A stretch of 64,000 nt of DNA from Octopus vulgaris (taxonomy: Eukaryota), in NCBI GenBank assembly GCA_951406725.2, contig OX597828.1, positions 37,014,001 through 37,078,000 of the forward strand, written 5' to 3'. Positions 1-53,585 of the stretch are shown in pieces; position 1 is the stretch's first letter; each line of letters starts with the position of its first letter. Under the pieces are notes generated by a model, which was given only the letters and a program-made list of their open reading frames with translations, searched no databases and had not been told where the DNA came from. The position numbers and the translations under genes are program-made.

Positions 1-2029
1 AAGCCAAATAGCCAAGCGAAAAAGCAAAGCCAAATAGCCAAGCAAAATTGCCAACCCAAATAGACTAGCCTAATAGCCAAGCCAAATAGCCAAGCCAAAT
101 GGCCAAGCCAAATAGCCAAGCCAAATAGCCAAGCTAAAAAGCGAAGCCAAATAGCTTGGCCTAATAGCCAACCCAAACAGTAAACACAAATAGCCAAGCC
201 AAATAGAGAAGCCAAATAGCAAAGCCAAATAGCAAACCAAAATAGCCAACCCAAATAGCAAATTCAAATAGCCAAGCCAAAAAGAACAGCCAAATAGCCT
301 AGCCAAAAAGCCAACCCAAATAGCAAAGAAAAATAGCCAACGCAAATAGCCAAGACAAATAGCCAAGCAAAATAGCCAACACAAATAGCCTAGCCAAATA
401 GCTAAGCGAAAGCTATAACCCAAATAGAAAACGCAAAAAGCCAAGCCAAATATTAAATTCAAATAGCCAAGCCAAATAGCCAAGCCAAATAGCTAAGCAA
501 AGTAGCCAAGCCAAATAGCTAACCTAAATAGCCTAGCCAAACAGCCAAGCCAAATAGCCAAGCCAAATAGCCAAGCCAAATAGCCAACCCAAACAGCCTA
601 GCCAAATAGCCAAGCCAAATAGCCGAGCCAAAAAGCCAAGCGAAATAGACAAGCCAAATAACCAACCCAAATAGCCTGGACTAATTGCCAAGCCAAATAG
701 CCAACCCAAACAGCAAACACAAATAGCCAACCCAACAAGACAAGTCAAATAGCCAAGCCAAATATCAAACCCAAATAGCCAACCCAAATAGCCTAGCCAA
801 ATAGCTAAGCCAAATATCCAACCCAAATAGAAAACCCAAATAGCCAACCGAAATAGCGATCCCAAACAGATAATCCAAATAGCCTAGCCAAATAGCCAAC
901 CCAAATAGCCTAGCCAAATAGCCAAGCCAAATAGCCGAGCCAAATAGCCAAGCTATATAGCCAAGCCAAGTAGCCAACCCAAATAGCCTGGCCTAATATC
1001 CATGCCAAATAGCCAACCGAAACAGCGAACACAAATAGCCAACCGAACAAGACAAGCCAAATAGCCAAGCAAAATAGCAAACTCAAATAGCCAACCCAAA
1101 TACCAAATTCGAATAGCCAAGCCAAAAAGCCAAGCCAAAAAGCCAAGCCAAATAGCCAAGCAAAAATCGCCAACCCAAAAAGCCAACACAAATAGCCTAG
1201 CCAAATAGCCAAGCCAAATTGCTAAGCCAAATAGCCAAGCCAAATAGCCAAGCCAAATAGCTAAGCCAAATAGCCAGGTCAAAAAGCAAAGCCAAATAGC
1301 CAAGCAAAATAGCCAACCCAAATAACCAACCCAAATAGCCTAGCCTAATAGCCAAGCCAAATAGCCAAGCCAAAGAGCCAAGCCAAAAAGCCAAGCGAAA
1401 AAGCCATGCCAAATAGCGAGGCCTAAAATCAAACCCAAATAGCCAACCCAAACAGTAAACACAAATAGCCAACCGAAATAGAGAAGCCAAAGAGCAAAGC
1501 TAAATAGCAAACCAAAATAGCCAACACAAATAGCAAATTCAAATAGCCAAGCCAAAGAGCCAAGCTAAAAAGAAAAGCCAAATAGCCTAGCCAAAAAGCC
1601 AAATAGCAAAGAAAAATAGCCAACACAAATAGCCAAGCCAAATAGCCAAGCCAAATAGCCAACCCAAATAGACTAAGCGAAATAGCTAAGCGAAATATAT
1701 AACCCAAAAAGCAAACCAAAAAAGCCAAGCCAAATATTAAGTTCAAATAGCCAAGCCAAATAGCCAAGCCTGATAGCCAAGCCAAGTAGTCATGCCAAAT
1801 AGCCAAACAAAATAGCCAACCCAAATATCCTAGCCAAATAGACAAGCCAAATAACCAAGCCAAATAGCCAAGCCAAATAGCCAACCCAAATAGCCTAGCC
1901 AAATAGCTAAGCCAAATATGCAACCAAAATAGCAAACCCAAATAGCCAACCCAAATAGCGATCCCAAACAGATAACCCAAATAGCCAAGACAAATCGAAA
2001 AGCCAAATCGCGGACCCAAATACCCAAGC

Positions 2030-2309
2030 AATTTGAGTTGGATATTTGGCTTGGCTATTTCGGTTGGCTATTTGGTTTTGCTATTTGGTTTGGCTACTTG
2101 ATTTGGCTATTTTGGTTGGCTTTTGTGTTTGCTATTTGTCTTCGCGAACCCGAATAGCGAACCCAAATGGCCAAACCAAATAGCCAAGCAATTGGAGTTG
2201 ACTTTTTGTCTTGGCTATATCGGTTGGCTATTTGGGTTTGCTATTTGGTATGGCTACATGGCTAGGCTATTTGCGCTGGATTTTTGGGTTTGCTATTTGG
2301 CTTCGCGAA
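2030..2309 (-). repeat. Double inverted cassette inside the satellite (two ~115-bp reverse-orientation blocks separated by ~45 bp of forward monomers)
   Basis: Switch to the T-rich strand at caagcAATTtgagtt (~2030) and back at TTCGCGAA (2141-2148); the pattern repeats from ~2190 to 2302-2309. Homologous cassettes at ~5228-5346, 7708-7827, 9938-10063, 19098-19378, 22219-22441, 24065-24347, 27376-27632 and 41697-41813. Confidence 0.9.
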
Positions 2310-24600: not shown

Positions 24601-25560
24601 AGCCAAGCAAAATAGCCTGGCCTAATAGCCAACCCAAATAGCCAACCCAAACAGCAAACACAAATAGGCAACCCAAATAGACAAGCCAAATAGCCAAGCC
24701 AAAAAGCAAACCCAAATAGCCAACCCAAATAGCAAACACAAATAGCCAAGCCAAATAAACAACCTAAAAAGAAAAGCCAAATAGCCTAGCCAAAAAGCCA
24801 ACCCAAATAGCAAAGAAAAATAGCCAACACAAATAGCCAAGCCAAAAGCCAAGCCAAATAGCCAACCCAAATAGCCTAGCCTAGCTAAGGCAAATTTCCA
24901 ACCCAAATAGCAAACTCCAAATAGCCAAGCCAAGTAGCCAAGCCAAATAGCCAACCTGAATAGCCAAACAAAATAGCCAAGCCAAATAGCCAACCCAGAT
25001 AGCCAAGCCAAAAAGACGAGCCAAAAAATCCAAGCCAAATAGCCAACCGAAATAGCCAAGCCAAGTAGCCAAGCCAAATAGTCAACCCAAATAGCCAACA
25101 CAAATAGCGTAGCCAAATAGCCAAGCCAAATAGCCAAGCAAAAATAGCCGACCCAAATAGCAAATTTAAATAGCCAAGCAAAATAGACAAGCCAAAAAGA
25201 AAAACCAAATAGCGTAGCCAAAATAGCGTAGCCAACCCAAATAGCAAAGAAAAATAGCCAACACAATTAGCCAAGCCAAATAGCCAAGCCAAATAGCCAA
25301 CCAATATAGCCTAGCCAAATTGCTAAGCCAAATATCCAACCAAAATAGCAAACCCAAATAGCCAACCCAAATAGCAAATTCAAATAGCCAAGCCAAATAG
25401 CCTTGCCAAAAAGCCAACCCAAATAGCCTTGCCAAATAGCCAAGCCAAATAGCCGAGACAAATAGCCAAGCCAAATAGCCAAGCCAAATAGCCAACCCAG
25501 ATAGCCTGGTCTAATAGCCAAGCCAAATAGCCAACCCAAACAGCGAACACAAATAGCCAA
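15696..25560 (+). repeat. ~4.9-kb tandem duplication within the satellite (copy A ~15696-20575, copy B ~20576-25560)
   Basis: Identical translated ORFs at 16736-17059 vs 21605-21928 (offset 4869) and 18732-19097 vs 23699-24064 (offset 4967). Shared rare motifs aatattaaaccaaaatagtaaacc (15780/20660) and cccagatagcctggtctaatag (20524/25496). Confidence 0.9.
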
Positions 25561-28122
25561 CCCAACAAGACAAACAAAATAGCAAAGCCAAATAGCAAAC
25601 CGAAATAGCCAACCCAAATACCAAATTCAAATAGCCAAACCAAAAAGCCAAGCCATAAAGCCAACCCAAATAGCCTTGCCAAATACCCAAGCCAAATAGC
25701 CAAGCCGAATTGCCAAGCCAAATAGCCTAGCGAAATAACTAAGCGAAATATCCAACACAAATAGCAAACCCAAATAGCGAAGCCAAATAGCCAAGCCAAA
25801 TAGTCAGCCCAAAAAGCCAACCCAAACAGCAAACACAAATAGCCAACCCAAATAGACAAGCCAAATAGCCAAGCCTAAAAGCAAACCCAAATAGCCAACC
25901 CAAATAGCAAACACAAATAGCCAAGCCATATAAACAACCCAAATAGACAAGCCAAATAGCCAAGCCAAAAAGCAAACCCAAATAGCCAACTCAAACATGC
26001 TATCCAACCTGCTAAGCCAAATATCCAACCCAAATTGTAAACCCAAATAGCCAACCATAATAGCAAACCCATATAGCCAACCCAAATAGCGATCCCAAAC
26101 AGATAACCCAAATAGCCAAGCCAAATAGCCAATCCAAATAGCCAACCCAAAGAGGCAAACAAAATAGCCAACCCAAATAGCAAACCCAAATAGCCTAGCC
26201 AAATAGATTTTTGGGTTTGCTATTTTGCTTGGCTATTTGTCTAGGCTATTTGGGTCATCTGTTTGGGATCGCTATTTGGGTTGGCTATTTGGCTTTGCTA
26301 TTGTGGTTGGCTATTTGTGTTGGCTATTTCGGTTTGCTATTTGGGTCCGCTATTTGGCTTAGCTATTTGTCTAGGCTATTTGGGTTATCTGTTTGGGATC
26401 GCTATTTGGGTTGGCTATTTGGGTTTGCTATTTTGGTTGGAAATTTGGCTTAGCTATTTAGCTAGGCTATTTGGGTTGGCTATTTGGGTTTGCTTTTTGG
26501 CTTGGTTATTCGGCTTGTCTATTTGGGTTGGCTATTTGTGTTTGATGTTTGGGTTGGGTATTTGTGTTCGCTATTAGGCCAGGCTATTTGGATTGGCTAT
26601 TTGGCTTGGCTATTTGGCTTGGCTATTTGGCTTGGCTATTTGGCTTGGCTATTTAGCTTGGCTATTTGGCTTGGCTATTAGGCTAGGCTATTTGGGTTGG
26701 CTATTTGTGTTTGCTTTTTGGATTGGCTATTTGGCTTGTCTATTTGGGTTGGCTATATGTGTTTGCTATTTTGGTTGGCTATTTGGTTTGGCTATTTGGG
26801 GTTGCTATTTTGCTTCGCTATTTGGCTTGGCTATTTGGCTTTTTGGGTTCGCTATTTGGGTTCGCGACGCCAAATAGCACACCCAAAATGCCAACCCAAA
26901 TAGCCAAGGCAAGTAGCCAAACCAAATAGCAAACCCAAATAGACAAGCCAAATAGCCAAGCCAAAAATCAAACCCAAATAGAAAAGCCAAATAGCCAAGC
27001 CAAAAAGCAAACCCAAATAGCCAACCTATATAGCGTAGCCTAATAGCCAAGCCAAATAGCAAAGCCAAATATCCAAGCCAAAAAGCCAAGCCAAATAGCC
27101 TGGCCTAATAGCGAACACAAAGAGCCAACCCAAACATCAAACACAAATAGCCAACCCAAATAGACTAGCCCAATAGCCAAGCCAAAAAGCAAACCCAAAT
27201 AGCCAACCCAAATAGCCTAGCCAAATAGCTAAGGCAAATATCCAACCAAAATAGCAAACCCAAAAAGCCAACCTAAATAGCGATCCCAAACAGATAACCC
27301 AAATAGCCTAGACAAATAGCTAAGCCAAATAGCGGACCCAAATAGCAAACCCAAATAGTCAACCCAAATACCCAAGCAATTTGAGTTGGATATTTGGCTT
27401 GGCCATTTCGGTTGGCTATTTGGGTTTGCTATTTGGTTTGGCTACTTGATTTGGCTATTTGGGTTGGCATTTTATGTTTGCTATTTGTCTTCGCGAACCC
27501 AAATAGCCAAACCAAATACCCAAGCAATTTGAGTTGGCTTTATGGCTCGGCTATTTCGGTTGGCTATTTGGGTTTGCTATTTGGTTTAGCTACTTGGCTA
27601 GGGTATTTGGGTTTGCTATTTGGTTTCCCGAACAAAATTGCGAACAAAAATAGCCAACACAAATAGCCAGCCCAAATAGCCAAGTCAAATAGCCAAACCA
27701 AATAGCCTAGCCAAATAGCTTAGTGAAATAGCAAATTCAAATAGCCAACCAAATAGCGACGCCAAAAAGCAAAGCTAAATAGCCAAGCCAAATAGCCTGG
27801 CCTAATAGCCAACCCCAATAACCAGCCCAAATAGCCAGGACAAAGATCCAAACCAAATAGCCTAGCCAAATAGCTATGTCAAATAGCAAATTCAAATAGC
27901 CAAGCCAAATAGCCAAGCAAAAAAGCAAACTAAATAGCCAAGCAAAATAGCCTGGACGATTAGCCAACCCAAATAGCCAACCCAAACCGCAAACACAAAT
28001 AGGCAACCCAGATAGACAAGCCAAATAGCCAAGCCAAAAAGCAAACCCAAATAGCCAACCGAAATAGCAAACACAAATAGCCAAGCCAAATAAACAACCA
28101 AAAAAGAAAAGCCAAATAGCCT

Positions 28123-31100
28123 AGGCTATTTGGGTTGGCTATTTGGGTTGGCTATTTGAATTTGCTATTTGGTTTGGCTTTTTGGGTTTGCTATTTGGGT
28201 TGGATATTTGGCTTAGCTTTTGGCTAGGCTATTTGGCTTGGATATTTGTGTTGGCTAATTTTCTTTGCTATTTGGGTTGGCTTTTTGGCTAGGCTTTTTG
28301 GCTTTTCTTTTTGGCTTGGCTATTTGAATTTGCTATTTGGGTTGGCTATTTTGGTTTGCTATTTGGCTTTGCTATTTAGCTTGTCTATTTCGGTTGGCTA
28401 TTTGTGTTTGCTTTTTGGTTTGGCTATTTTGTTTGGCTATTAGGTCAGGCTATTTTGCTTGGCTATTTAGCTTGGCTATTTAGCTTGGCTTTTTTGATTG
28501 GCTATTTGGCTAGGCTTTTTGGGTTGGCTATTTTGCTTGGCTATTTGGCTTGGCTTTTTGGCTTGGCTATTTGCATTTGCTATTTGGGCTGGCTATTTGC
28601 ATTGGCTACTGATGTTCGCTATTTAGCTTCGCGAAGCCAAATAGCACACCCAAAAAGCCAAACAAAATAGCCAAATCAATTAGCCAAACCAAATAGCAAA
28701 CCCAAATAGCCAAACGACATAACCAAGCCAAATATCCAACTCAAATTGCTTGGGTATTTGGGTTGGCTATTTGGGTTTGCTATTAGGATACGCTATTTGG
28801 CTTAGCAATTTGTCTAGGCTATTTGTGTTATCTGTTTGGGATCGCTATTTGGGTTGGCTATTTGGGTTGGCTATTTGGGTTTGCTTTTTGGCTTGGCTAT
28901 TTAGGTTCGCTATTAGGCCAGGCTATTTGGCTTGGCTATTTTGCTAGGCTATTTGGGTTGGCTATTTTGCTAGGCTTTTTGGGTTGGCTATTTGGCTTGG
29001 CTCTTATGCTTGGCTATTTGGCTTGGCTATTTGAATTTGTTATTTGGGTAGGCTATTTGGATTTGCTATTTGGCTTGGCTATTTTGCTTGTCTTGTTGGG
29101 TTGGCTATTTGTGTTTGCTGTTTAGTTTGGCTATTTTGCTTGGCTATTAGGGCAGGCTATTTGGGTTGGCTATTTGTGTTGGCTATTTGGCTTGGCTATT
29201 TGGCTCGGCTATTTGGCTTGGCTATTTGGCTAGGCTATTTGGGTTTGCTATTTGGGTTGGCTATTTGTGTTGCCTATTTGGGTTGGCTATTTGGCTTGGC
29301 TATTTGGTTAGGCTATTTGGGTTGGCTATTTGTGTTGGCTATTTGTCTTGGCTACTTGGCTTGGCTATTTGGCTTGGCTATTTGGCTTTGCTATTTGGCT
29401 TGGCAATTTGGCTTGTCTATTTGGCTAGGCTATTTGGGTTGGCTATTTGGGATGGCTATTTTGCTTGGCTATTTGGCTTGGCTTTTTGGCTTGGCTATTT
29501 GGCTTGGCATTTTGAATTCGGTATTTGAGTTGGCTATTTGGGTTTGCTATTCGGGTCTGCTATTTGGCTTGTCTTGTTGGGTTGGCTCTTTGTGTTTGCT
29601 GTTTGGGTTTGCTATTTGGCTTGGCTATTAGGCCAGGCTATTTGGATTGGCTATTTGGCTTGGCTATTTGGCTTGGCAATTTTGCTTGTCTATTTGGTTA
29701 CGCTATTTGGGTTGGTTATTTTGGTTGGCTATTTGTCTTTGCTTTTTCGCTTGGCTATTTGGCTTGGCTATTCGAATTTGGTATTTGGGTTGGCTATTTG
29801 GGTTTGCTATTTGGGTTGGCTATTTGGCTTGGCTATTACGCCAGGCTATTTGGGTTGGCTATTTGGCTTGGCTATTTATGTTGGCCATTTTCCTTTTCCT
29901 ATTTGGATTGGCTTTTTGGCTAGGCTATTTGGCTTTTCTTTTTTGGTTGTTTATTTGGCTTGGGTATTTGTGTTTGCTATTTGGGTTGGCTATTTGGTTT
30001 TGCTATTTGGCTTGGCTATTTGGCTTGTCTTTTTAGGTTGCCTATTTGTCTTTGCTTTTTGGGCTGGCTATTTGGGTTGGCTATTTGGCCAGGCTATTTT
30101 CCTTGGCTATTTAGATTGGCTTTTTGGCTTGGCTATTTCTCTTGGCTATTTGGGTTGGTTATTTGGCTAGGATTTTTGGGTTGCCTATTTGGGTTGGCTA
30201 TTTTCCATCGCTATTTGGATTGGCTTTTTGGCTTGGCTATTTGGCTTGGTTATTTGAGTTTGCTATTTGATTTGGCTATTTGGGCTGGCAATTTGTGTTG
30301 GCTATTTTTGTTCGCAATTTACCTTCGCGAAGCCAAATAGCAAACCCAAAAAGCCAACTCAAATAGCCTAGCCAAGTAGCCAAACAAAATATCAAACCCA
30401 AATAGCCAACCGAAATAGCCAAGCCAAAAAGCCAACTCAAATTGCTTTGTTATTTGGTTTGGCTATTTGGGTTCGCGGAGACAAATAGCAAACACAAAAA
30501 TCCAACCCAAATAGCCAAATCAAGTAGCCAAACCAAATAGCAAAACAAAATAGGCAACCGAAATACCAAAGCCCAATATCCACCTCAAATTGCTTGGGTA
30601 TTTGTGTTGGCTATTTGGGTTTGCTATTTGGGTCCGCTATTTGCCTTAGCTATTTGTCTTGGCTATTTGGGTTATTTGTTTGGCTTAGCTATTTGGCTTG
30701 GCTATTTGGGTTGCCTGTTTGTGTTTGCTTTTTGGCTTGGTTTTTGGCTTGTCTGTTTGGGTTGGCTATTTGTGTTTGCTGTTTGGGTAGGTTATTTGGG
30801 TTCGCTATTAGGCCAGGCTATTTGGCTTGGCCATTTGGCTTGGCTATTTGGCTTGGCTATTTCGCTTGGCTATTAGGCTAGGCTATTTGGGTTGGCTATT
30901 TGGGTTTGCTTTTTGGCTTGGCTATTTGGCTTGTCTATTTGGGTTGGCTATTTGTGTTTGCTGTTTGGGTTGGCTATTTGGGTTGGCTATTAGGCCAGGC
31001 TATTTGGCTTGGATATTTGGCTTGTCTATTTGGCTAGGCTATTTGGGTTGGCTATTTGGGTTGGCTATTTTGCGTGGCTACTTGGTTTGGCTATTTGGCT

Positions 31101-34100
31101 TGGCTTTTTGGGTTCGCTATTTGGGTTCGCGAAGCCAAATAGCAAACCCAAAAATCCAACCCAAATAGCCAAGCCAAGAAGCCAAACCAAATACCAAACC
31201 CAAATAGCCTACCGAAATAGCCAAGCCAAATAGCCAACTCATATTGCTTGGGTATTTGGGTTGGCTATTTGGGTTTGCTATTTTGGTCCGCTATTTGGCT
31301 TAGCTATTTGGCTAGGCTATTTGACTTATCTGTTTGGGATCGCTTTTTGGGTTGGCTATTTGGCTTTGCTATTGTGGTTGGCTATTTGGGTTGGCTATTT
31401 GGGTTTTCTATTTGTGTTGGATATTTGGCTTAGCTATTTTGCTAGGCTTTTTGGGTTGGCTATTTGGGTTTGCTTTTGGCTTGGCTATTTGGCATGTCTA
31501 TTTGGTTTGGCTATTTGAGTTCGCTATTAGGCTTGGCTATTTGGGTTGGCTATTTGGGTTGGCTATTTGGCTTGGCTATTTGGCTAGGCTATTTGGGTTG
31601 GCTATTTGGTTTGGCAATTTGGCTTTGCTACTTGGCTTAGCTATTTGGCTCGGCTATTTGGAGTGGCTATTTCAATTTAATATTTGGCTTCGCTTATTGT
31701 GTTTGCTATTTGGGTTATATATTTGGCTTAGCTATTTGGCTAGGCTATTTGGGTTGGCTATTTCTCTTTGCTATTTGGGTTCGCTTTTTGGCTAGGCTAT
31801 TTGTCTTTTCTTTTTGGCTTGGCTATTTGAATTTGCTATTTGTGTTGGTTATTTTGGTTTGCTATTTGGCTTTGCTATTTGGCTTCTCTATTTGGGTTGG
31901 CTATTAGGCCAGGCTATTTGGCTTGGCTTTTTGGCTTGGCTATTTGGCTTGGCTATTTGGCCTGGCTATTTGGCTTGGCTATTAGGCTAGGCTATTTGGG
32001 TTGGCTATTTTCTTGGCTATTTGGCTTTGCTTTTTTCGCTTGGCTATTAGGCTTTGCCATTTGGCTTGGCTATTTGGCTTGGCAATTTGGCTTGGCTATT
32101 TGGCTAGGCTATTTGGGTTGGCTTTTTGGGTTGGCTATTTTGCTTGGCTATTTGGCTTGGCTTTTTGGTTTGGCTATTTGGCTTTGCTTTTCGAATTTGG
32201 TATTTGGGCTGGCTATTTGGGTTTGCTATTTGGTTTAGCTATTTGGCTTGTCTTGGTGGGTTGGCTATTTGTGTTTGCTGTTTTGGTTGGCTTTTTCGCT
32301 TGGCTATTAGCCCAGGCTATTTGGGTTGGCTATTTGGCTTGGCTATTTGGCTTCGCTCTTTGGCTTGGCTATTTAGCTAGGCCATTTTGGTTGGCTATTT
32401 GGCTTGGCTTTTTGGCTTGGCTATTTGACTTGGCTATTCGAATTTGGTATTTGGGTTGGCTATTTGGGTTTGCTATTTGGCTTGGCTATTTGGCTGGTCT
32501 TGTTGGGTTGGCTATTTGTGTTTGCTTTTTCGGTTGGCTATTTGGCTTGGCTATTTGGCTCGGCTATTTGGGTTGGCTATTTGGCTAGGCTATTTGGGTT
32601 GTTTATTTGGGTTGGCTATTTGGATTGGCTATTTCGCTTGCCTATTTGGCTAGGCTATTTGGGTTGGCTATTAGGGTTGGCTATTTGGCTTGGCTACTTG
32701 GCTTAGCTATTTGGCTTGCCTTTTTGAAATTAATATTTGGCTTGGCTTTTTGGGTTTGCTATTTGGGTTATATATTTGGCTTAGCTATTTGGCTAGGCTA
32801 TTTGGGTTGGCTATTTGGCTTGGCTATTTGGCTTGGCTATTTGTGTTGGCTATTTTTCTTTGCTATTTGGGTTGGCTATTTGGCTTTTCTTTGGCTTGGC
32901 TATTTGGCTTGGCTATTTGAATTTGCTATTTGGGTTGGTTATTTTGGTTTACTATTTTGTTTTACTATTTTGGTTTAATATTTTGGCTAGGCTATTTGGC
33001 CTTTCTTTTTGGCTTGGCTATTTGGCTTTGCTATTTGGCTTCTCTATTTGGGTTTGCTATTTGTGTTTACTGTTTGCGTTGGCTATTTGGGTTCGCTATT
33101 AGGCCAGTCTATTTGGCTATTTGGCTTGGCTTTTTGACTTGGCTAATTGGGTTGGCTATTTGGCTTGGCTATTTGGCTTGTCTTGTTGGGTTGGCTATTT
33201 GTGTTTGCTGTTTCGGTTGGCTTTATGGCTTGGCTATTAGCCCAGGCTAATTTGCTTGGCTATTTGGCTCGGCTATTTGGCTTGGCAATTTGGCTAGGCT
33301 ATTTGGCTTGGCTGTTTGGCTAGGCTATCTGGGTTAGCTATTTGTATTGGCTATTTTGCTTCGCTATTTGGCTTGGCTTTTTGGCTTGGCTATTTGGCTT
33401 GGCTAATCGAATTTGGTATTTGGGCTCGCTATTTGGGTTTGCTATTTGGCTTGGCTTTTTGGCTTGTCTTGTTGGGTTGGCTATTTGGCTAGGCTATTCG
33501 GGTTGGCTATTTGGCTTGGCTTTTTGGCTTGGCTTTTTGGCTTGTCTTGTTGGGTTGGCTATTTGGCTAGGCTATTCGGATTGGCTATTTGGCTTGGCTA
33601 TTTGGCTTGGCTATTTGGCTAGTCTATTTGCGTTGGTTACTTGGGTTGGTTATGTTGCTTGGCTACTTGGCTTAGCTATTTGGCTTAACTATTTTGCTTG
33701 GCTATTTGAATTTAATATTTGGCTTGGCTATTTGGGTTATATATTTGGCTTAGCTATTTGGCTAGGCTATTTGGGTTGGCTATTTGGCTTGGCTATTTGG
33801 CTTGGCTATTTGTGTTGGCTATTTTTCTTTGCTATTTGGGTTGGCTTTTTGGCTAGGCTATTTGGCTTTTCTTTTTGGTTTGGCTATTTGGCTTGGCTAT
33901 TTGAATTTGCTATTTGGGTTGGCTATTTTGGTTTGCTATTTGGCTTTGCTATTTGGCTTCTCTATTTGGGTTGGCTATTTGTCTTTACTGTTTGGACTGG
34001 CTATTTGGGTTCGCTATTAGGCCAGTCTATTTGGCTTGGCTTTTTGGCTTGGCTATTTGGCTTGGCTATTTGGCTTGGCTATTTTGCTTGGCTATTTGGC

Positions 34101-35099
34101 TTGTCTTGTTGGGTTGGCTATTTGTGTTTGCTGTTTTGGTTGGCTATTTGGCTTGGCTAATCGCCCAGGCTATTTGGGTTGGCTATTCGAATTTGGTATC
34201 TGGGTTGGCTATTTGTGTTTGCTATTTGGCTTGTCTTGTCTTGTTGGGTTGGCTATTTGTGTTTGCTGTTTGGGTTGACTACTTGTCTTGGCTATTAGCC
34301 CAGGCTATTTGGGTTGGCTATTTGGCTTGGCTATTTGGGTTTGCTATTTGGCTTGGCTATTTGGCTAGGCTATTTGGGTTGCTTATTTGGGTTGGCTATT
34401 TGGCTTGGCTATTTGGCTAGTCTATTTGGGTTGGCTTTTTGGCTTGGCTATTTGGCTTCGCTACTTGGGTTAGCTATTATGCTTGGCTATTTGAATTTAA
34501 TATTTGGCTTGGCTTTTTGGGTTTGCTATTTGGGTTATATATTTGGCTTAGCTATTTGGCTTGGCTATTTGTGTTGGCTATTTTTCTTTGCTATTTGGGT
34601 TGGCTTTTTGACTAGGCTATTTGGCTTTTCTTTTTGGCTTGGATATTTGAATTTGCTATTTCGGTTGGCTATTTTGGTTTAATATTTGGCTTTGCTATTT
34701 GGCTTCTCTATTTGGGTTGGCTATTTGTGTTTACTGTTTGGGTTGTCTATTTGGGTTCGCTATTAGGCCAGTCTATTTGGCTTGGCTTTTTGACTTGGCT
34801 ATTTGGCTTGGCTATTTGGCTTGGCTATTTGACTTTGCTATTAGGCTAGGCTATTTGGGTTGGCTACTTGGGTTGGCTATTTTGCTTGGCTATTTGGCTT
34901 TGCTTTTTGGCTTGGCTATTTGGGTTGGGTATTTGGCTTGGCTTCTCGGGTTGGCTATTTGGCTTGGCTATTTGAATTTGCTATTTGGCTTGGATTTTTG
35001 TGTTTGCTATTTGGGTTGGATATTTGGCGTAGCCATTTGGCTAGGCTTTTTGGCTTGGCTATTTGGCAAGGCTATTTGTTTTGGCTATTTTTCTTTGCT
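28123..35099 (-). repeat. Large (~7 kb) reverse-orientation domain of the satellite containing mirror-image cassettes
   Basis: T/G-rich strand starting at the perfect palindrome ccaaatagcct|aggctatttgg (28112-28133). Forward-reading cassettes run from TTCGCGAA to aactcaaattgctt-type hinges at ~28628-28750, 30324-30593 and 31126-31248. Contains reverse complements of landmarks from 15780/20660 (at 32945-32985) and 28085-28105 (at ~29940). Confidence 0.92.
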
Positions 35100-38000
35100 G
35101 GCCTAATAGCGAACCCAAATAGCCAAGCCAAAAAGCAAGCCCAAATAGCCAACCTAAATAGCCAACTCAAATAGCGATCCCAAACAGATAACCCAAATAG
35201 CCTAGACAAATAGCTAAGCCAAATATCGTATCCAAATAGCAAACCCAAATAGCCAACCCAAATACCTAAGCAATTTGAGTTGGATATTTGGCTTGGTTAT
35301 TTCGGTTGGCTATTTTGCTTGGCTATTTGGTTAGGCTATTTGGGTTGGCTATTTGGCTTGGCTATTTGTCTTGGCTACTTGGGTTGGCTTTTTGGCTTGG
35401 CTATTTGATTTTGCTATTTGGCTTGGATTTTTGGGTTTGCTATTTGGGTTGAATATTTGTCGTAGGTATTTGGCTCGGCTATTTGGCTTGGCTATTTGGC
35501 TAGGCTATTTCTTTTGGCTATTTTTCTTTGCTATTTGGCCTTTCTTTTTGGCTTGGCAATTTTGCTTGGCTATTTGAATTTGGTATTTGGGTTGGCTATT
35601 TGGGTTTGCTATTTTGGTTGGATATTTGGCGTAACTATTTGGCTAGGCTATTTGGGTTGGCTATTTGGGTTTGCTTTTTGGCTTGGCTATGTGGCTTGTC
35701 TATTTGGGTTGGTTATTTGTGTTTGCTGTTTGGGTTGGCTATTTGGGTTCGCTATTAGGCCACGCTATTTGGCTTGGCTTTTTGTCTTGGCCATTTGGCT
35801 TTGCTATTTGGCTTGGCTATTTGGCTTGGCTATTTGGCTTGGCTATTTGGCTTGGCTATTAGGCTAGGCTATTTGGGTTGGCTATTTGGGTTGGCTATTT
35901 TGCTTGGCTATTTGGCTTGGCTTTTTGGCTTGGTTATTTGGCTTGACTATTTGAATTTGGTATTTGGGTTGGCTATTTGGGTTTGTTTTTTGGCTTGGCT
36001 ATTTTGCTTGTTTTTTGAGTTGGCTATTTGTGTTTGCTGTTTGGGTTGGCTATTTGACTTTGCTATTATGCTAGGCTATTTGTGTTGGCTATTTGGCTTG
36101 GCTATTTGGGTCGCCTATTTGGCTTGACTATTTGGCTAGTCTATTAGGGTTGGCTGTTTGGCTTAGCTATTTGGCTAGGATATTAGGCTTGGCTATTTGG
36201 CTATACTTTTTGGCTTGGCCATTTGTGTTGGCTATTTGGCTTGGCTATTTGAATTTGCTATTTGGCTTGGCTTATTGGGTTTGCTATTTGGGTTGGATAT
36301 TTGGCTTGGCAATTTTGTTGGCTATTAGGGTTGGTTTTTTGAGTTGGTTGGCTATTTGTGTTGGCTTTTTGGCTAGGCTTTTTGGCTTGCCGTTTTGGGT
36401 TGTCGCTATTTGGCTTGGCTATTTGGCTTCGCCATTTGTGTTGGCTATTTGTGTTTGCTCTTTGGGTTGGCTATTTGGATTGCTATTTTGGATGGCTTTT
36501 TCAGTTTGCTATTTGAGTGGGCTATTTGGCTTGGCTATTTCGGTTGGCTATTTGGGTTTTGCTCTTTGGGTTGGCTATTTGGATTGCTATTTTGGATGGC
36601 TTTTTCAGTTTGCTATTTGAGTGGGCTATTTGGCTTGGCTATTTCGGTTGGCTATTTGGGTTTTGATATTTGGTTTGGCTATTTGGATTGTCTATTTGGG
36701 TTGGCTTATTGGGTTTGCTTTTTCGCTTCGCGATCCCCAATAGCGAACCCAAATAGCCTACAAAAAAAGCAAACATAAATAGCCAAGCCAAATAGCAAAG
36801 CCAAATAGCCAACCAAAATAGCCAATCAAATAGCCAAGCCAAATAGCCTAGCCAAATAGCCAAGTCAGATAGCAAACACAAATAGCCACAAACACCCATG
36901 TGAAATAGCCAACTCAAATAACGAACCCAAATAGCGAACCTAAAAATTCTAGCAAAATAGCGAAGCTAAATAGCCAACCCAAATAGCAAATATAAATAGC
37001 CAAACCAAAAAGCCAAGCCAAATAGCCAGGCCACGGAGCCAAGCCAAATAGCCAACCCAAATAGCCTGGCCAAATAGTCAAGCCAAATAGCCAAGCCAAA
37101 CAGCAAACACAAATAGCGAACCCTTGGCTTTTTGGCTTGTCTATTTGGCTTGGCTATTAGGCTAGGCTATTTGGATTGGCCATTTTGCTTGGCCATTTGG
37201 CTTGGCTTTTTGGCTTGTCTATTTGGCTTGGCTATTAGGCTAGGCTATTTGGATTGGCCATTTTGCTTGGCCATTTGGCTTGGCTTTTTGGCTTGGCTAT
37301 TTGAATTTGGGTTGGCTATTTATGTTTGCTGTGTGTGTTGGCTATTTTACTTGACTATTAGGCCAGGCTATTTGTGTTGGCTATATGGCTTGGTTATATG
37401 GCTTGTCTACTTGGCTCGGCTATTTGGCTTGACTATTTGGCAAGGCTATTTGGGTTGGCTATTTGGGTTGGCTATTTGGCTTGTATATTTGTCTTGGCTA
37501 TTTGGCTAGACTTTTTGGGTTGGCTATTTGGGTTGGCTATTTGGCTTGGCTACTTGGATTGGCTACCTGGCTTGGCTATTTGAATTTGCTATTTGGCTTG
37601 GCTTATTGGGTTTGCTATTTGGGTTGGATGTTTGGCTTGGCATTTTTGTTGGCTATTAGGGTTGGTTATTTTTGTTTGCTATTTTTCTTGGCTATTTGGG
37701 TTGGCTTTTTGGCTGGCTTTTTGGCTTGCCATTTTGGGTTGTTTAGTTGCCTTGGCTATTTGTGTTTGTTATTTGTGTTGGCTATTTGGGTTCGCTATTT
37801 GGCTTGGCTATTTGGCTTCGCCATTTGTGTTGGCTATTTGTGTTTGCTCTTTGGGTTGGCTATTTGGATTCGTTATTTGGCTAGGCTATTTTGGATGGCT
37901 TTTTCAGTTTGCTATTTGAGTGGGCTATTTGGCTTGCCTATTTCGGTTGACTATTTGGGTTTGCTATTTGGTTTGGCTATTTGGATTGTCTATTTGGGTT

Positions 38001-41000
38001 GGCTTATTGGGTTTGCTTTTTCGCTTCGCGATACCTAATAGCGAACCCAAATAGCCAAAAAAAAGCAAACATAAATAGCCAAGCCAAATAGCAAAGCCAA
38101 ATAGCCAACCAAAATAGCCAATCAAATAGCCAAGCCAAATAGCCTAGCCAAATATCTAAGTCAGATACTAAACACAAATAGCCACAAACACCCATGTGAA
38201 ATAGCCAACTCAAATAACGAACCCAAATAGCGAACCTAAAAAGCCTAGCACAATAGCGAAGCTAAATAGCCAACCCAAATAGCAAATATGAATAGCCAAC
38301 CCAAATAGCCAAATAGCCAAATAGCCAGGCCAAGGAGCCAAGCCAAATAGCCAACCCAAATAGCCTGGCCAAATAGCCAAGCCAAATAGCCAAACCAAAT
38401 AGCCAACACAAATAGCGAACCCAAATAGACAAGCCAAATAGCCAACCCAAATAGCAAATTCAAATAGCCAAGCCAAATAGCCTAGTCAAAAAGCCAAGCC
38501 AAATAGCCAAAGATAACAGCCAACCCAAATAGCCAAGCCAAATAGCCAAGCCAAATAGCCATGCCAAATAGCCTGGCCTAATAGCCAACCCAAATAGCCA
38601 ACCCAAACAGCAAACACAAATAGCTAACCCAAATTGCAAACCCAAATAGCTATTTGGCTAGGATATTTGGGTTTGCTATTTGGGTAGGCTATTTAGGTTG
38701 GCTATTTGGGTTGGCTACTTGGGTTTGCTTTTTGGCGTGGCTCTTTGGCTTGTCTATATGGGTTGGCTATTTCTGTTTGCTGTTTGGGTTGGCTATTAGG
38801 CCAGGCTATTTGGCTTGGCTATTTGGGTTGGCAATTTGGGTTAGCTATTTTGCTTGGCTATTTGGCTTGGCTATTTGAATTTACTATTTGGGTTGGCTAT
38901 TTGGGTTTCCAATTCGGCTTCGCTATTTGGCTTGTCTATTTGGGTTGGCTATTTGTGTTTGCTGTTTGGCTTGGTTATTTGGCCAGGCTATTTAGGTTGG
39001 CTATTTGGCTTGCCTCTTTGGCTTGGCTATATGGCTTGGTTATTTGGGTTGGGTATTTATGTTTGCTATTTGGGTTGGCTATTTGGCTTCGCTATTTGGC
39101 TAGGCTTTTTGGGTTCGCTATTTGGGTTCGTTATTGGAGTTTGCTATTTCACATGGGTATTTGGGTTTGCTATCTGACTTAGATATCTGGCTAGGCTGTT
39201 TGGCTTGGCTATTTGATTGGCTATTTTGGTTGGCTATTTGGCATTGCTATTTGGCTTGGCTATTTGTGTTTGCTTTTTTTGTTGGCTATTTGGGTTCGCA
39301 ATTTAGGCTCGCGAAGGGAAATAGCAAACCCAAAAAGCCAACCCAAATAGACAAACCAAGTAGCCAAACCAAATAGCAAACCCAAAATAGCCAACCGAAA
39401 TAGCCAAGCCAAGTAGCCAACTCAAATAGCCAACTGAAAAAGCCATCCAAAATAGCCTAGCCAAATAGCGAAGCCAAATAGCCAACCCAAAGAGCAAACA
39501 CAAATAGCCAACACAAATGGCCAAGCCAAATAGCCGAGCCAAATAACGAACCCAAATAGGCAACACAAATAGCAAACACAAATAGCCAAGCCAAATAGAC
39601 AACCCAACACGACAAGCCAAAAAGCCTAGCCAAAAAGCCAAAAAAAAAATAGCCAAGAAAAATAGCCAACACAAATAACCAACCCTAAGAGCAAACAGAA
39701 TTGTCAAGCCAAATATCCAACCCAAATAGCAAACCCAAAAAGCCAAGCCAAATAGCAAATTCGAATAGCCAAGCCAAATAGCCAAGCCAAATAGCCAAGC
39801 CAAGTAGCCAAGCCAAATAGCCAAGCCAAATAGCCAACCCAAAAAGCTTAGCAAAATAGCCAAGCCAAATATCCAAGCCAAATAGCCAAGCCAAATAGCC
39901 AACCCAAATAGCCTAGCCAAATAGTCAAGCCAAATAGCCGAGCCAAATAGGCAAGCCAAATAGCCAAGCCAAATAGCCAACAAAAATAGCCTGGCCTAAT
40001 AGCCAAGCCAAATAGGAAACACACATAGCCAACCCAAAAAGACAAGCCAAATAGCCAAGCCAAATCGCAAACCCAAATAACCAACCCAAATACCAAATTC
40101 AAATAGCCAAGCCAAATAGCCAAGCCAAAAAGCCAACCCAAATAGCCTAGCCTAATAGCCAAGCCAAATAGCCAAGCCAAATAGCCAAGCCAAATGGCCA
40201 AGCCAAATAGCCAAGCCAAATAGCCAAGCCAAATAGCGTGGCCTAATAGCGAACCAAAATAGCCAACCCAAACAGCAAACACACATAGCCAACCCAAAAA
40301 GACAAGCCAAATAGCCAAGCCAAATCGCAAACCCAAATAGCCAACCCAAATAGCCTAGCCAAATAGCTAAGCCAAATATCCAACCCAAATAGCCAACCCA
40401 AACAGCCAAGCCAAATAGCAAATTCAAATAGCCAAGCCAAATAGCCAAGCCAAATAGCCAACCCAAGTACCCAGGCCAAATAGCCAACCAAAATAGCCAA
40501 CCCAATAGCCTAACCAAATAGCCAAGCCAAATAACCAACCCAAATAGCCAACCCAAATAGTCAACCCAAAAAGCCTAGCCAAATATCAAAGCCAAATAGC
40601 CGAGCCAAATAGCCAAGCCGAATAGATAAAGCCAAATAGCCAACCCAAATAGCCTGGCCTAATAGCCAAGCCAAATAGCCTACCCAACAAGACAAGCCAA
40701 ATAGCCAAGCCAAATAGCAAACCCAAATAGCCAACCCAAATCCAAAATTCAAATAGTAGGCCAACAAAAAAAGCAAACACAAATAGCCAAGCCAAATAGC
40801 AATGCCAAATAGCCAACCAAAATAGCCAATCAAATAGCCAAGCCAAACAGCCTAGCCAGATATCTAAGTCAGATAGCAAACCCAAATACCCGTGTGAAAT
40901 AGCCAACTCCAATAACGAACCCAAATAGCCAACCCAAATAGCCAAGCCAAATAGCCAACCCAAATAGCCAAGCAAAATAGCAAACATAAATACCCAACCC

Positions 41001-41927
41001 AAATAACCAAGCCATATAGCCAAGCAAAAGAGGCAAGCCAAATAGCCAACCTAAATAGCCTGGCCAAATAGCCAAGCCAAACAGCAAACACAAATAGCCA
41101 ACCCAAATAGACAAGCCAAATAGCGAAGCCGAATTGGAAACCCAAATAGCCAACCCAAATAGTAAATTCAAATAGCCAAGCCAAATAGCCAAGCAAAATA
41201 GCTAACCCAAATTGCCAACCCAAATAGCCAAGCCAAATAGCCTGGCCTAATAGCCAACCCAAACAGCAAACAGAAATAGCCAACCCATATAGACAAGCCA
41301 AATAGCCACGCCAAAAAGCAAACCCAAGTAGCCAACCCAAATAGCCAGCCCAAATAGCCATTTGGCTTGGCTTTTTGGCTTGGGTATTTTAATTTTCGTA
41401 TTTTGGTTGGCTATTTGTGTTTGCTGGTTGGGTTGGCTATTTGACTTGGCTATTAGGCCAGGCTATTTGTGTTGGCTATTTGTGTTGCCAACTAGCTAAG
41501 CCAAATACCCAACCGAAATTGTAAATCCAAATAGCCATCCATAATAGCCAACCATAATAGCAAACCCAAATAGCCAACCCAAATAGCGATCCCAAACAGA
41601 TAACCCAAATAACCTAGACAAATAGCTAAGCCAAATAGCGGACCCAAATAGCAAACCCAAATAGCCAACCCAAATAGCCAACCTAAATACCCAAGCAATT
41701 TGAGTTCGCTATTTGGCTTGGCTATTTAGGTTGGCTATTTAGGTTTGCTATTTGGTTTGGCTACTTGGCTTGGCTTTGGGTTGGCTTTTTGGGTCTGCTA
41801 TTTGGCTTCGCGAACCCAAAAAGCCAAGCCAAATAGCCAAGCAAAATAGCCATGCCAAATAGCCAACTTATATAGCCAACCTAACTAGCCTACCCAAATA
41901 GCAAACCCAAATATCCTAGCCAAATAG

Positions 41928-44900
41928 CTATTTGGGTTTGCTATTTGGGTTGGCTATTTTGCTTGGCTATTTGAATTTGCTATTTGACTTAGCTATTTGG
42001 GTAGGCTATTTGGCTAGGCTCATTGGGTTCGCTATTTGGGTTCGGTATTTGAGTTGGCTATTTCGCTTGTGTATTTGGGTTGGCTATGTCACTTTTCTAT
42101 TTTGCTAGGCTATTTGGCTTGGCTATTTGACTTGGCTATTTGGGTTGGCTATTTGGCTTTGCTATTTGGCTTGGCTATTTGTGTTTGCTATTTGTGTTGG
42201 CTATTTGGGTTCGCTATTTGGCTTGGCGATTTGGCTTGTCCATTTTTGTTTGCTATTTGCGTTTGCACTTTGGGTTGGCTATTTGGCTTCGCTATTTGGC
42301 TAGGCTTTTTTGGTTGGCTTTTTCGGTTGGATATTTGAGTTGGATATTTGGCTTTTCTATTTCGGTTGGCTACTTGGGTTTGCTATTTGGTTTGGCTACT
42401 TGGCTTGGCTATTTGAGTTGGCTTTTTGGGTTTGCTATTTGGCTTGTCTATTTGTCTTGCGTCTTTGGGTTGTCTATTTGGTTTGGCTATTTGGGTTGCC
42501 TATTTGGGTTGGCTATTTTGGTTTGCTATTTGGCTTGGCAATTTGGCTTGGCTATTTGGCTTGGCTATTTGAGTTGGCTATTTGGCTTGGCTATTTGGGT
42601 TGGCTATTTGAGTTGGCTATTTGGCTTGGCCTTTTGGGTTGGCTATTTGTGTTTGCTATTTGTGTTCGCTATTTGGGTTCGCTATTTGGCTTAGCTATTT
42701 GTGTTATCTATTTGGGATGGCTATTTTGGTTGGCTATTTGAGTTGGCTTTTTGGCTTGGCTATTTGGGTTGGCTATTTGGGTTTGCTATTTGGGTTGGCT
42801 ATTTGGCTTAGCTATTTGGCTCGTCTATTTGGGTTGGCTATTTGTGTTGGCTCTTTGGGTTGGCTATTTGGGTTGGCTATTTGGCTCGGTTATTTGGCTT
42901 GGTTATTTGGCTTGGCTATTTGAATTGGCTATTTGGATTGGCTTTTTGGGTTGGGTTTTTGGCTTGGCTTTTTGAGTTAGCTATTTAGCTTGGCTATTTG
43001 CGTTGGATATTTGGGTTTGCTATTTGGGTTGGCTATTTTGCTAGGCTATTTGCCTTGGCTATTTGGGTTGGCTCTTTTTTACTTTTTTTGGGTTGGCTAT
43101 TTGGCTTGGATTTATGGCTTTGCTATTGGGCTTGGCTATTTGAATTTGGGATTTGGGTTGGCTATTTGGGTTGGCTATTTGGCTTTATCTATTCGGCTTG
43201 GCTATTTGGCTCGGCTATTTGCTTGGATATTTGGCTAGGCTATTTGGGTTGACTATTTGGGTTGGCTATTTGGCTTGGTTATTTGGCTTGGCTATTTGGT
43301 TAGGCTATTGGGTTGGCTATTTTCCTTGGCTATTTGGCTTGGCTACTTGGGTTGGCTATTTGGCTTGGCTATTTGAATTTGCTATTTGGCTTGGCTGTTT
43401 GGGTTTGCTATTTGGGTTGGGTACTTGGCTTAGCTTTTTGGCTAGGCTATTTGGGTTGGCTATTTGGCTTGGCTATTTGTGTAGGCTATTTTTCTTTGCT
43501 ATTTGGGTTGGCTTTTTGGCTAGGCTAATCGGCTTTTCGTTTTGGCTTGGCTATTTGAATTTGCTATTTGGGTTGACTATTTGGGTTTGCTATTTTAGTT
43601 GGATATTTGGCTTAGCTATTTGGGTTGGCTATTTGGGTTGGCTATTTGGGTTTGCTTTTTGGCTTGGCTATTTGGGTTGGCTCTTTGGGTTGGCTATTTG
43701 GGTTGGCTATTTGGGTTGGCTATTTGGCTTGGCTATTTGAATTGGCTATTTGGCTTGGCTTTTTGGGTTGGCTTTTTGGCTTGGCTTTTTGAGTTAGCTA
43801 TTTGGCTCGGCTATTTGCGTTGGATATTTGGGATTGCTATTTGGGTGGGCTATTTGGTTTGGCTTTTTGTCTAGGCTATTTGGGTTGACTATTTTGTGTT
43901 GGCTATTTGTGTTGGCTATTTGGCTTGGCAATTTTGTTTGGCTTTTAGGGTTTGCTATTTGTGTTAGCTATTTTTCTTGGCTATTTGTGTTGGCTTTTTG
44001 GTTAGGCTATTTGGCTTGCTTATTTGGGTTGTCTTTTTGGCTTGGGTATTTGGGTTGGCTATTTTGGTTGTGTACTTGGCTTAGCTTTTTGGCTAGGCTA
44101 TTTGGGTTGGCTATTTGGCTTGGCTATTTGGCTTGGCTATTTGTGTAGGCTATTTTACTTTGCTATTTGGGTTGGCTTTTTGGCTAGCCTAATCGGCTTT
44201 TCGTTTTGGCTTGGCTATTTGAATTTGCTATTTGGGTTGACTATTTGGGTTTGCTATTTTAGTTGGATATTTGGCTTAGCTATTTGGGTTGGCTATTTGG
44301 GTTTGCTTTTTGGCTTGGCTATTTGGGTTGGCTCTTTGGGTTGGCTATTTGGGTTGGCTATTTGGCTTGGCTATTTGAATTGGCTATTTGGCTTGGCTTT
44401 TTGGGTTGGCTTTTTGTCTTGGCTTTTTGAGTTAGCTATTTAGCTTGGCTATTTGCGTTGGATATTTGGGATTGCTATTTGGGTGGGCTATTTGGTTTGG
44501 CTTTTTGTCTAGGCTATTTGGGTTGACTATTTTGTGTTTGCTATCTGTGTTGGCTATTTGGCTTGGCAATTTTGTTTGGTTTTTAGGGTTTGCTATTTGT
44601 GTTAGCTATTTTTCTTGGCTTTTTGGCTAGGCTATTTGGCTTGCTTATTTGGGTTGTCTTTTTGGCTTGGGTATTTGGGTTGGCTATTTTGGTTGGCGAT
44701 TTGGGTTGGCTATCTAGCTTGGCTATTTGGCTTGGCTATTTGTCTTGGCTTTTTTGGTTTGCTATTTGCGTTGGCTTTTTTACTTAGCTATTTGGCTAGG
44801 CTATTTGGCTTTTCTATTTGGCTTGTCTATTTGGCTTTGCTATTTGGCTTGGCTATTTGGCTAGGCTCTTTGGGTTCGCCATTTGGGTTCGTTTTTTGAG

Positions 44901-45047
44901 TTGGCTATTTCGCATGGGTATTTGGGTTGACTATTTGACTTAGCTATTTGGCTAAGCTATTTGGCTTGGCTATATGACTTGGCTATTTGGGTTGGCTATT
45001 TGGGTTGGCTATGTGGCTTGGCTATTTGGCTTGGTTATTTGGCTAGG
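41928..45047 (-). repeat. Second large (~3.1 kb) reverse-orientation satellite domain with an internal ~650-bp tandem duplication (~43410-44040 / ~44070-44690)
   Basis: Starts at palindrome ccaaatag|ctatttgg (41920-41935). Duplicated landmarks ctaatcggcttttcgttttggc (~43525/~44189) and gggattgctatttgggtgggc (~43830/~44468). Confidence 0.88.
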
Positions 45048-46539
45048 CCAATTTGCCTACTCAAATAGCCAACCCAAATAAACTGGCCAAATACCGAAGC
45101 GAAATAGCAACCCAAACAGCCAACCCAAATAGCCAAGAAAAATAGCCAACACAAATAGCCAAACCTAATAGCCAACAAAATTGCCAAGCCAAATAGCCAT
45201 CTCAAATAGCCAAGCCAATTAGCTTACTCAAATAGCCAACCCAAATAGCCAACCCAAATAAACTGGCCAAATACCCAAGCGAAATAGTAACCCAAATAGC
45301 CAACCCAAATAGCCAAGAAAAATAGCCAACACTAATAGCCAACCCTAATAGCCAACAAAATTGCCAAGCCAAATAGCCAACCCAAATAGCGAAACGAAAT
45401 AGTCAACCCAAATGGCCTAGACAAATAGGCAAGCCAAATAGCCAACCCAAATAGTAAACCGAAATTGCCAACGTAAATAGCCAAGCTAAATAGCTAACTC
45501 AAATAGCCAACCCAAATAGCCAACCAAAATAGCAAATCCAAGTAACCAACTCAAATAGCCATCCCAAATAGCCAACCCAAATAGCAAACCCAAATAGCCA
45601 AAGCAAATAGCCAAGCTAAATACCTAACTCAAGTTGCCAACACAAATAGCCAAACCAAATAGCCAAGCCAAATAGCCAAGCCAAATAGCCAACTCAAATA
45701 GCCAACCCAAATAGCTAACCCAAATAGCCGAGCCAAATAGCCAAGCCAATAAGCAAAGCCAAATAGCCAAACCAAATATCAACCTAAATAGCCTAGCCAA
45801 ATAGCCAACCCAAATAACAAACCGAAATAGCCTAGCCAAATAGCCAAGCCAAATAGCCAACCCAAATAGCAAACCCAAATAGCAAACCGAAATAGCAAAC
45901 GCAAATAGCCAAGCCAAATAGAAACCCAAAAATAGAGCCAAATAGCCTAGCCAAAAAGCCAACCCAAATAGCCAAGAATAATAGCCAACACAAATAGCCA
46001 ACCCTAATAGCCATACAAATACGTACATTAAAACAAATGATAAGAAACACTGCTTAACAAAGTAACTAAATAATTCATTATGAATGAAGGCCCAACGCGC
46101 TTGTTACTTGGGAACCAATTAAATCACACTTGATTATAGAATAAGTAAATATATATATAGTTTAAATATATATATATGTACGGAGTTATCAACTACAAAC
46201 GTTGAGTAGTTCTTGCAGAAAAATTACAACGGGAATAATGCTACCTATTGCAAAACCACACCTGTTGCAGATAAATTAACAGAGATCATTCTTAGGTCTT
46301 AACCCAACAGAGTCAAACATTGACATCTATCAACAGGTGGAAGTGAACCCTAATTATTGAATGGAAGTGATATTGTACACCGTATCGAATGATAACTGCC
46401 GAACAGAAGTGGCATTACGCATAATAGTGAATGACAAAACCCCCAGTAATGAATATATATATATATATAATTCAATAATAAATCTCTGAACGAGGTGTAA
46501 ACAGTAGCTGCACGACAATGTGAAATATATTTGTCACTT

Positions 46540-53014: not shown

Positions 53015-53180
53015 TATATACGTATATATATATATATATACGTATATATATATATATATACGTATATATATATATACGTATATATATATATACGTATATA
53101 TATATATATATATACGTATATATATATATACGTATATATATACGTATATATATATATATATATACGTATATATATATACG

Positions 53181-53212
<32 letters not shown>

Positions 53213-53511
53213 CGTATATATATATATATATATATACGTATATATATACGTATATATATATACGTATATATATATATATATATATACGTATATATATACG
53301 TATATATATATACGTATATATATATATATATATATACGTATATATATGTATATATATACGTATATATATATATATATACGTATATATATATACGTATATA
53401 TATATACGTATATATATATATATACGTATATATATATACGTATATATATACGTATATATATATATATATATATACGTATATATATACGTATATATACGTA
53501 TATATATATAC

Positions 53512-53585
<74 letters not shown>
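53015..53585. repeat. Long (TA)n microsatellite periodically interrupted by CG (TATATACG units), followed by (TG)n
   Basis: Directly visible. Confidence 0.97.

Follow-up and report, generated by a model that had tools for sequence, protein, structure and literature searches.

The question raised by this locus is how a strand-asymmetric short repeat came to reverse its orientation dozens of times without other sequence at the points of reversal. In the window (the whole stretch of 64,000 nucleotides of Octopus vulgaris contig OX597828.1 that was analyzed), TRF placed a 13-bp satellite with the consensus monomer CCAAATAGCCAAG/C at positions 1 to 46013. The left edge of the array lies 13,075 bp outside the window (C15:37000926), giving a full length of 59,088 bp in the assembly, and no N gaps occur in it. 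Orientation was called with a two-strand, 13-phase HMM, which returned 60 direct switches for the whole array of the assembly, 50 of them within the window. No foreign DNA separates the arms at the 50 window switches, bearing out the repeated flips described in an earlier sequence-only reading of the locus. The HMM assigned 30,986 bp of the window array to the plus strand and 15,027 bp to the minus strand, and junction polarity across the whole array was even (30 plus-to-minus, 30 minus-to-plus). Blocks reached 3 to 4 kb, with one inverted region of 7 kb, and 18 inverted window segments were modules of ~113 bp. The array flanks are microsatellite-rich; ORFs in the right flank, judged by eye, were repeat-derived frames plus a few resembling transposase fragments, none of them tied to the array. 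Six of 20 listed runs (two studies) hold 14 to 45% of the words sampled from positions 26000 to 31500, which is uninformative on hinges.

Most of the switches proved to be repeats of one another. Families were built by clustering junction flanks plus alignment, with some of the collapsing done by eye (automatically, 66 junctions fell into 13 to 19 clusters), yielding ten hinge families in the window and 14 in the whole array. Two hinges, H1 (gcAATTtgag) and H2 (the TTCGCGAA type), border one segment of ~113 bp. Across the whole array H1 made up 19 of the 30 plus-to-minus junctions and H2 26 of the 30 minus-to-plus junctions (together 45 of 60); in the window they accounted for 40 of the 50 switches (18 H1, 22 H2). 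These 40 are diverged copies of two old hinges, multiplied by kilobase-scale duplications, as anticipated by the caveat in the sequence-only reading that many hinges copy a few ancestral events. The window array contains about ten different joints at which the strand switches, and the majority of the 50 are later copies of two.

The ~113-bp module exists in three states: hinge-free and in line, with H2 only and followed by a segment Y, and with both H2 and H1. Identity among 17 module copies was 78 to 99% (median, 88%), and the window holds 18 two-hinge copies. HMM calls, clustering and alignment identified a tandem pair of inverted modules separated by 48 bp, with H1 and H2 at the ends of each (2032..2304, minus strand), and further copies at 5231, 7710, 9941, 19097, 19253, 22216, 22347 (shortened), 24064, 24230, 27380, 27528 and 41699; four copies spanning 28631..31241 on the plus strand (28631, 30327, 30479 and 31129) lie within the wholly inverted 7-kb block. 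A hinge-free copy at 42335..42447 (approximate, minus strand) runs in line and then into Y in register, and may represent the ancestral state. One-hinge copies, consisting of H2, the module and Y without H1, occur at 39306..39500 (plus strand) and at 36734, 38032 and -5933 (left of the window); H2-only copies and the in-line copy were 87% alike across 338 columns. We considered whether H1 and H2 were the two ends of one reciprocal inversion, a reading that is disfavored because Y, not the H2 flank, follows the module in the hinge-free and one-hinge copies. In the simplest order, H2 would have arisen first and H1 later. Chimeric arms were found at 26863, 35273 and 38649. The arm at 26862..27379 (plus strand, hinge 26863) carries H2 and the module's first ~80 bp followed by other array sequence, and may be a recombination product; the arm at 35230..35330 (minus strand, hinge 35273, by alignment) carries H1 and only the module's last ~45 to 55 bp.

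Outside the multi-copy families, the window of the assembly contains six single-copy hinges plus hinge e, a 12-bp palindrome at 22341..22352. Read against two paralogs (2080-2310 and 24120-24350), hinge e corresponds to the loss of 57 bp spanning H1, from one GC dinucleotide to another; deletion would be the direction of change because H1 has 19 copies, and hinge d is probably a deletion across H1 too. Hinge g (28112..28133) is a 22-bp palindrome with a 4-bp CTAG overlap, and its arms are diverged paralogs (83% aligned identity), not mirror twins. Hinge f (41920..41935, with a copy at 38642-38657) has a GC core; its copies share a patch of ~75 bp between unrelated flanks, and 26207 carries a probable diverged copy. 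Hinges h (35095..35106) and i (37118..37128, without a palindrome) are asymmetric and single copy, as are hinges j and k, which enclose a 127-bp inverted block (41361..41487, minus strand); hinge l (45043..45053) is asymmetric with a GC overlap. Duplications containing module copies were 96.5 to 98.5% identical, among them a direct duplication carrying a module pair (17504-20564 and 22470-25536, plus strand, 98.5%), and a recent inverted duplication (38699-39286 and 40760-41347, 98%) has its arms 1.5 kb apart. Five pairs were compared as reciprocal inversion ends (g-h, j-k, f-l, a-b and H1-H2); no reciprocal pair is claimed, because phase pairing was ambiguous and the restored joints were present in no paralog.

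Most switch points had been described as short palindromes built from monomer variants, and every exact motif was found where the sequence-only reading had located it: TTCGCGAA at 12 window sites (2141, 2302, 7820, 19206, 22434, 24179, 24340, 27490, 28628, 30324, 31126 and 41807), the 22-bp palindrome at 28112, and ccaaatagctatttgg at 38642 and 41920. TCGCGA occurs at 16 window sites, none of them more than 7 bp from a called switch. That most switches are palindromic holds only if the most frequent hinge, with its 4-bp AATT, is counted, because the named motifs give perfect palindromes of ≥8 bp at only 16 of the 50 switches. The hinge at 41350, listed as a similar palindrome, has just a 2-bp one, and TGGCCT, listed as a hinge feature, is no mark of hinges but an ordinary variant of in-line sequence, with 40 + 23 window copies. 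In the sequences examined, TTCGCGAA was absent away from hinges, which suggests that joining at GC produced it and that it did not serve as a template seed.

A genome search with a 20-mer placed all 1916 matches in eight arrays of 3 to 59 kb each on seven contigs, a family total of 215,217 bp in the 2.8-Gb assembly, in which arrays may be collapsed. Direct switches also occur in arrays C1a (6, in two families) and C11 (20, in about five families), at hinges that differ from those of the C15 array in the window. None occur in C1b, C5, C8, C10 and C2 (111,042 of the 215,217 bp), and orientation in C2 changes only across other DNA. C1b was tried as a source of the pre-inversion allele for C1a and rejected, the arrays having just 1 to 14% of 39-mers in common. 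Proposed seed words were not uniformly richer in the C15 array than in flip-free arrays: TAGCTA occurred at 2.7 per kb versus 3.2 to 5.9 and CTAG at 5.2 versus 5.0 to 7.6, while GGCC (2.1 versus 0.3 to 1.0), AATT (4.3 versus 1.7 to 3.4) and GCGAA (3.1 versus 1.0 to 1.9) were denser, GCGAA being lowest in the flip-rich C11.

Collapsed families were compared with 10,000 joins made at random from real array sequence and analyzed identically. The test set comprised 19 families (14 from C15, 2 from C1a and 3 from C11), omitting two junctions of a 12-bp micro-inversion in C11. Microhomology of ≥2 bp was found in 8 of 19 families against 1.96 expected (P = 0.0003; overlaps of 2 to 4 bp), and of ≥1 bp in 15 of 19 against 6.9; these values come from a small set of partly hand-collapsed families and estimate microhomology from the monomer profile rather than from known ancestral bases, which are available only for hinge e and one arm of hinge g. 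The excess persisted when the two families derived by deletion were dropped (7 of 17, P = 0.001) and when only the window families were counted (5 of 10, P = 0.0015). Phase-symmetric hinges were also in excess (7 of 19 versus 2.5 expected, P = 0.006), and so were palindromes of ≥8 bp (6 of 19 versus 1.6, P = 0.003), the enrichment at collapsed junctions that the sequence-only reading had proposed as a test. With microhomology length fixed, however, the expectation rose to 5.9 for symmetric hinges (P = 0.34) and to 3.9 for palindromes of ≥8 bp (P = 0.14); palindromes of ≥6 bp were above expectation but not significantly so (8 versus 5.3, P = 0.10), and all symmetric and palindrome counts conditioned in this way gave P = 0.10 to 0.56. 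The consensus monomer and its own reverse complement have no 3-mer in common and share only AT, TA and GC, so joins at microhomology tend to look palindromic; the outcome was symmetric in 53% of random joins with a 2-bp overlap. The hinge palindromes are thus likely a by-product of ordinary short-overlap joining and not the mark of a special self-inverting machinery.

If instead the inversions began as fold-back (ODIRA/FoSTeS-type) inverted duplications primed at palindromic monomer variants, the mirror arms must since have been lost to mutation or deletion. The 7 of 19 phase-symmetric families agree with such an origin, as does the exact ending of hinge g (28123) at a native CTAG variant present in a paralog. 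Palindromic variants as the cause are otherwise not supported, because the excess disappears at fixed microhomology and TAGCTA and CTAG are equally frequent in flip-free arrays. Mirror arms were sought with ungapped, gapped and variant-weighted comparisons against a between-array null, and only 2 of 86 junctions, 26863 and 26207, exceeded the null maximum. At 26863, the stronger, a gap of 499 bp separates the homologous arms and module sequence lies next to the hinge; at 26207 the match spans only 64 bp. The C1a hinge 16977663 is marginal, with 93% similarity between its arms along 41 bp exactly at the center (score of 8.9 versus a null 99th percentile of 8.8), and beyond these three there was essentially no hinge-centered inverted duplication among the 86 junctions. 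The arms of hinge g are closer to a distant paralog (92 to 93%) than to one another. Yeast ODIRA junctions, as described in the available portions of PMC10766183, resemble the octopus hinges in their very short overlaps (inverted repeats of 2 to 14 bp) and secondary deletions, but have mirror-duplicated arms that lie about 100 bp or less from the junction; such arms were not found at the octopus hinges. With arms that are not mirror copies, the fold-back origin that the sequence-only reading had put forward is not supported, and we regard it as improbable. Fold-back chimeric reads could also have produced hinges as an artefact of library or assembly. Tandem arrays are difficult to assemble, and the six single-copy window hinges and hinge e lie outside the multi-copy families. 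Nevertheless, the array lacks N gaps, hinge copies have diverged together with their flanks, and none of the hinges is flanked by identical mirror arms (the best pairs reached 92% across 39 bp and 90% across 91 bp); because module copies are 78 to 99% identical within duplications of 96.5 to 98.5% identity and identical mirror arms are lacking, an artefact is very unlikely. Still harder to credit is a site-preferring recombinase that would use a palindromic core to invert the array. GC serves as the core in 5 of the 19 families, but symmetric hinges have four different cores (GC, TA, AT and CTAG), 12 of 19 families are asymmetric, re-inversion is accompanied by indels, and the strict H2 pattern is limited to the C15 array (7 matches genome-wide, all on C15). 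With no common core at independent junctions, the site-preferring activity suggested earlier is largely refuted. What survives of the self-inverting satellite reading is its caveat and its proposed test, whereas fold-back, palindromic seeds as the cause and a recombinase are not supported.

The neutral joining account by itself leaves one feature unexplained, namely that the families are concentrated in three arrays. All 21 hinge families fall in three of the eight arrays and none in the other 111 kb, exceeding a uniform rate (P = 0.0004 by families; P = 0.04 by a rough event count); zero hinges in the flip-free 111 kb has P = 0.0015 even with nine events. Hairpins or cruciforms at existing hinges might provoke nearby breaks and template switches, so that an array once flipped would go on flipping; this feedback would add to the microhomology account, and we regard it as a tentative possibility. 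It accords with the clustering, with the folding of 80-nt hinge windows at -9 to -28 kcal/mol (mean of -1.2 and minimum of -6.8 in 300 head-to-tail windows), with the position of H1 113 bp from H2, and with hinge e, and probably d, being a deletion across H1. On the other hand, ordinary inversions also yield paired hinges, folding energy does not equate to extrusion in vivo, and C1a has remained at one hinge pair in three copies without further families. The hinge-rich array is, moreover, slightly more diverged (pair identity of 0.771 versus 0.784 to 0.792 in the three arrays compared), so that age may account for the clustering. Taken further, the first inversion could turn a hairpin-free array into a hairpin-rich one in which hinges breed hinges, separating arrays that never flipped from those in which flipping ran away; we offer this self-scrambling as speculation that is rather doubtful at present.

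We consider it probable that rare strand switches at microhomology, followed by amplification, recombination and hinge deletion, built the switches of the array. Initially, a broken end or stalled nascent strand would join the opposite strand at an overlap of 1 to 4 bp, by template switching or microhomology end joining, a pathway suggested by the statistical excess of overlaps; the arms would often be united at the same phase, giving a palindrome. On the module plus Y, H2 would have arisen first, as the observed states allow, and H1 would later have cut in at the far module end to leave the inverted module of ~113 bp. Kilobase-scale duplications, which are seen in the array, then multiplied the module with its hinges, and recombination between in-register monomers may have transferred old hinges to new arms, consistent with the chimeric arms. 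Deletions across a hinge at GC overlaps, as in the single case of hinge e, would finally have produced new, more symmetric hinges. No function for the hinges is needed. Overlaps of 1 to 4 bp, small indels at joints and reuse of inverted copies are familiar from MMBIR, FoSTeS, TMEJ and ectopic inverted-repeat recombination, and mechanistically the octopus array adds nothing new to them; what is specific to it is that, owing to strand asymmetry, the usable overlaps are restricted to self-complementary dinucleotides.

No description of this 13-bp satellite was found in the literature (a search with a 12-letter motif returned unrelated papers only), and the passages of PMC7004042 on "orientation" contain no analysis of switches. 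The closest likeness is to the macro-dyad symmetries in satellite arrays of Tribolium freemani (TfSat01 and TfSat03) and T. madens (TmSat1 and TmSat2), as presented in the available portions of PMC12581902 and PMC13081366, the latter stating that such symmetries are documented only in Tribolium. In both systems orientation reverses without extraneous DNA at the inversion point, and a few recurring inversion types, spread by amplification, dominate (here 45 of 60 switches in two). By these same portions, however, Tribolium inversion types are conserved at 95 to 99.9% and occur on 3 to 7 chromosomes, whereas octopus hinge copies are 78 to 99% identical and each type is restricted to one array; and the Tribolium satellites are abundant, megabase-sized on all chromosomes and putatively (peri)centromeric, whereas the octopus family totals 215 kb in eight arrays, possibly collapsed in the assembly. 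Tribolium has multi-kilobase inverted subarrays, mostly two per array; the octopus array also has blocks of up to 3 to 4 kb and an inverted region of 7 kb, but its commonest unit is a 113-bp micro-inversion. The octopus array thus resembles these satellites but is not a member of the group, because no hinge type occurs on more than one chromosome and its family is small. "Microhomolog" and "template switch" are absent from the main text of both papers, whose supplementary alignments might show microhomology, and in the portions available recurring inversion sites are read as possibly functional.

As far as those portions go, the octopus array indicates that a few chance joins plus amplification can mimic the picture read as functional in Tribolium, and it preserves the intermediates in hinge-free, one-hinge, two-hinge and deleted states. 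It also carries a general caution: because any microhomology join in a strand-asymmetric short repeat tends to look palindromic, palindromic hinges in such repeats do not count as evidence for fold-back. Should the concentration of hinges in three of the eight arrays prove causal, this satellite family would permit a direct test of hinge-driven instability, and if self-scrambling were true, its eight sister arrays would form a natural experiment on the origin of satellite dyad symmetries outside Tribolium.

The 13-bp monomer of the window array (1-46013) looks as if composed of two subunits, of 8 bp and 5 bp. The register slips by either length (5 or 8 bp) in places, as seen in 18-bp units at 17783 and 22749 and in an 8-bp run at 38301. 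To the right of the array lie a second, AT-rich array of 540 bp (53014-53551), whose 12-14-bp unit is self-complementary, and open frames on the minus strand (60271-61241) that resemble fragments of a mariner-type transposase.

Among the sister arrays on other contigs of the assembly, that of C11 (C11:20837953-20848991) contains three copies of a higher-order unit of ∼2.37 kb, each with six direct changes of monomer orientation (switches), including the inversion of a single monomer (12-14 bp) that was also found in mirror orientation. The C2 array (C2:215458498-215497235), ∼105 kb from the contig end, is interleaved with a second repeat, and its orientation flips only across that other DNA; it shares one flank repeat with the C8 array. 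Right of the flip-free C5 array are repeats (C5:51772765-51774300), presumably tRNA-like.

Two arrays lie on contig C1 (C1:16975000-17011000 and C1:107707000-107730000), with six switches in one and none in the other. Each is enclosed by a 22-bp repeat, itself flanked at both loci by the same dispersed element, which we assume to be Helitron-like and whose terminus consists of a short hairpin plus CTAG. The array-start junction and ∼1 kb of flank are common to both arrays (83-95%), which suggests that a single element carried both.
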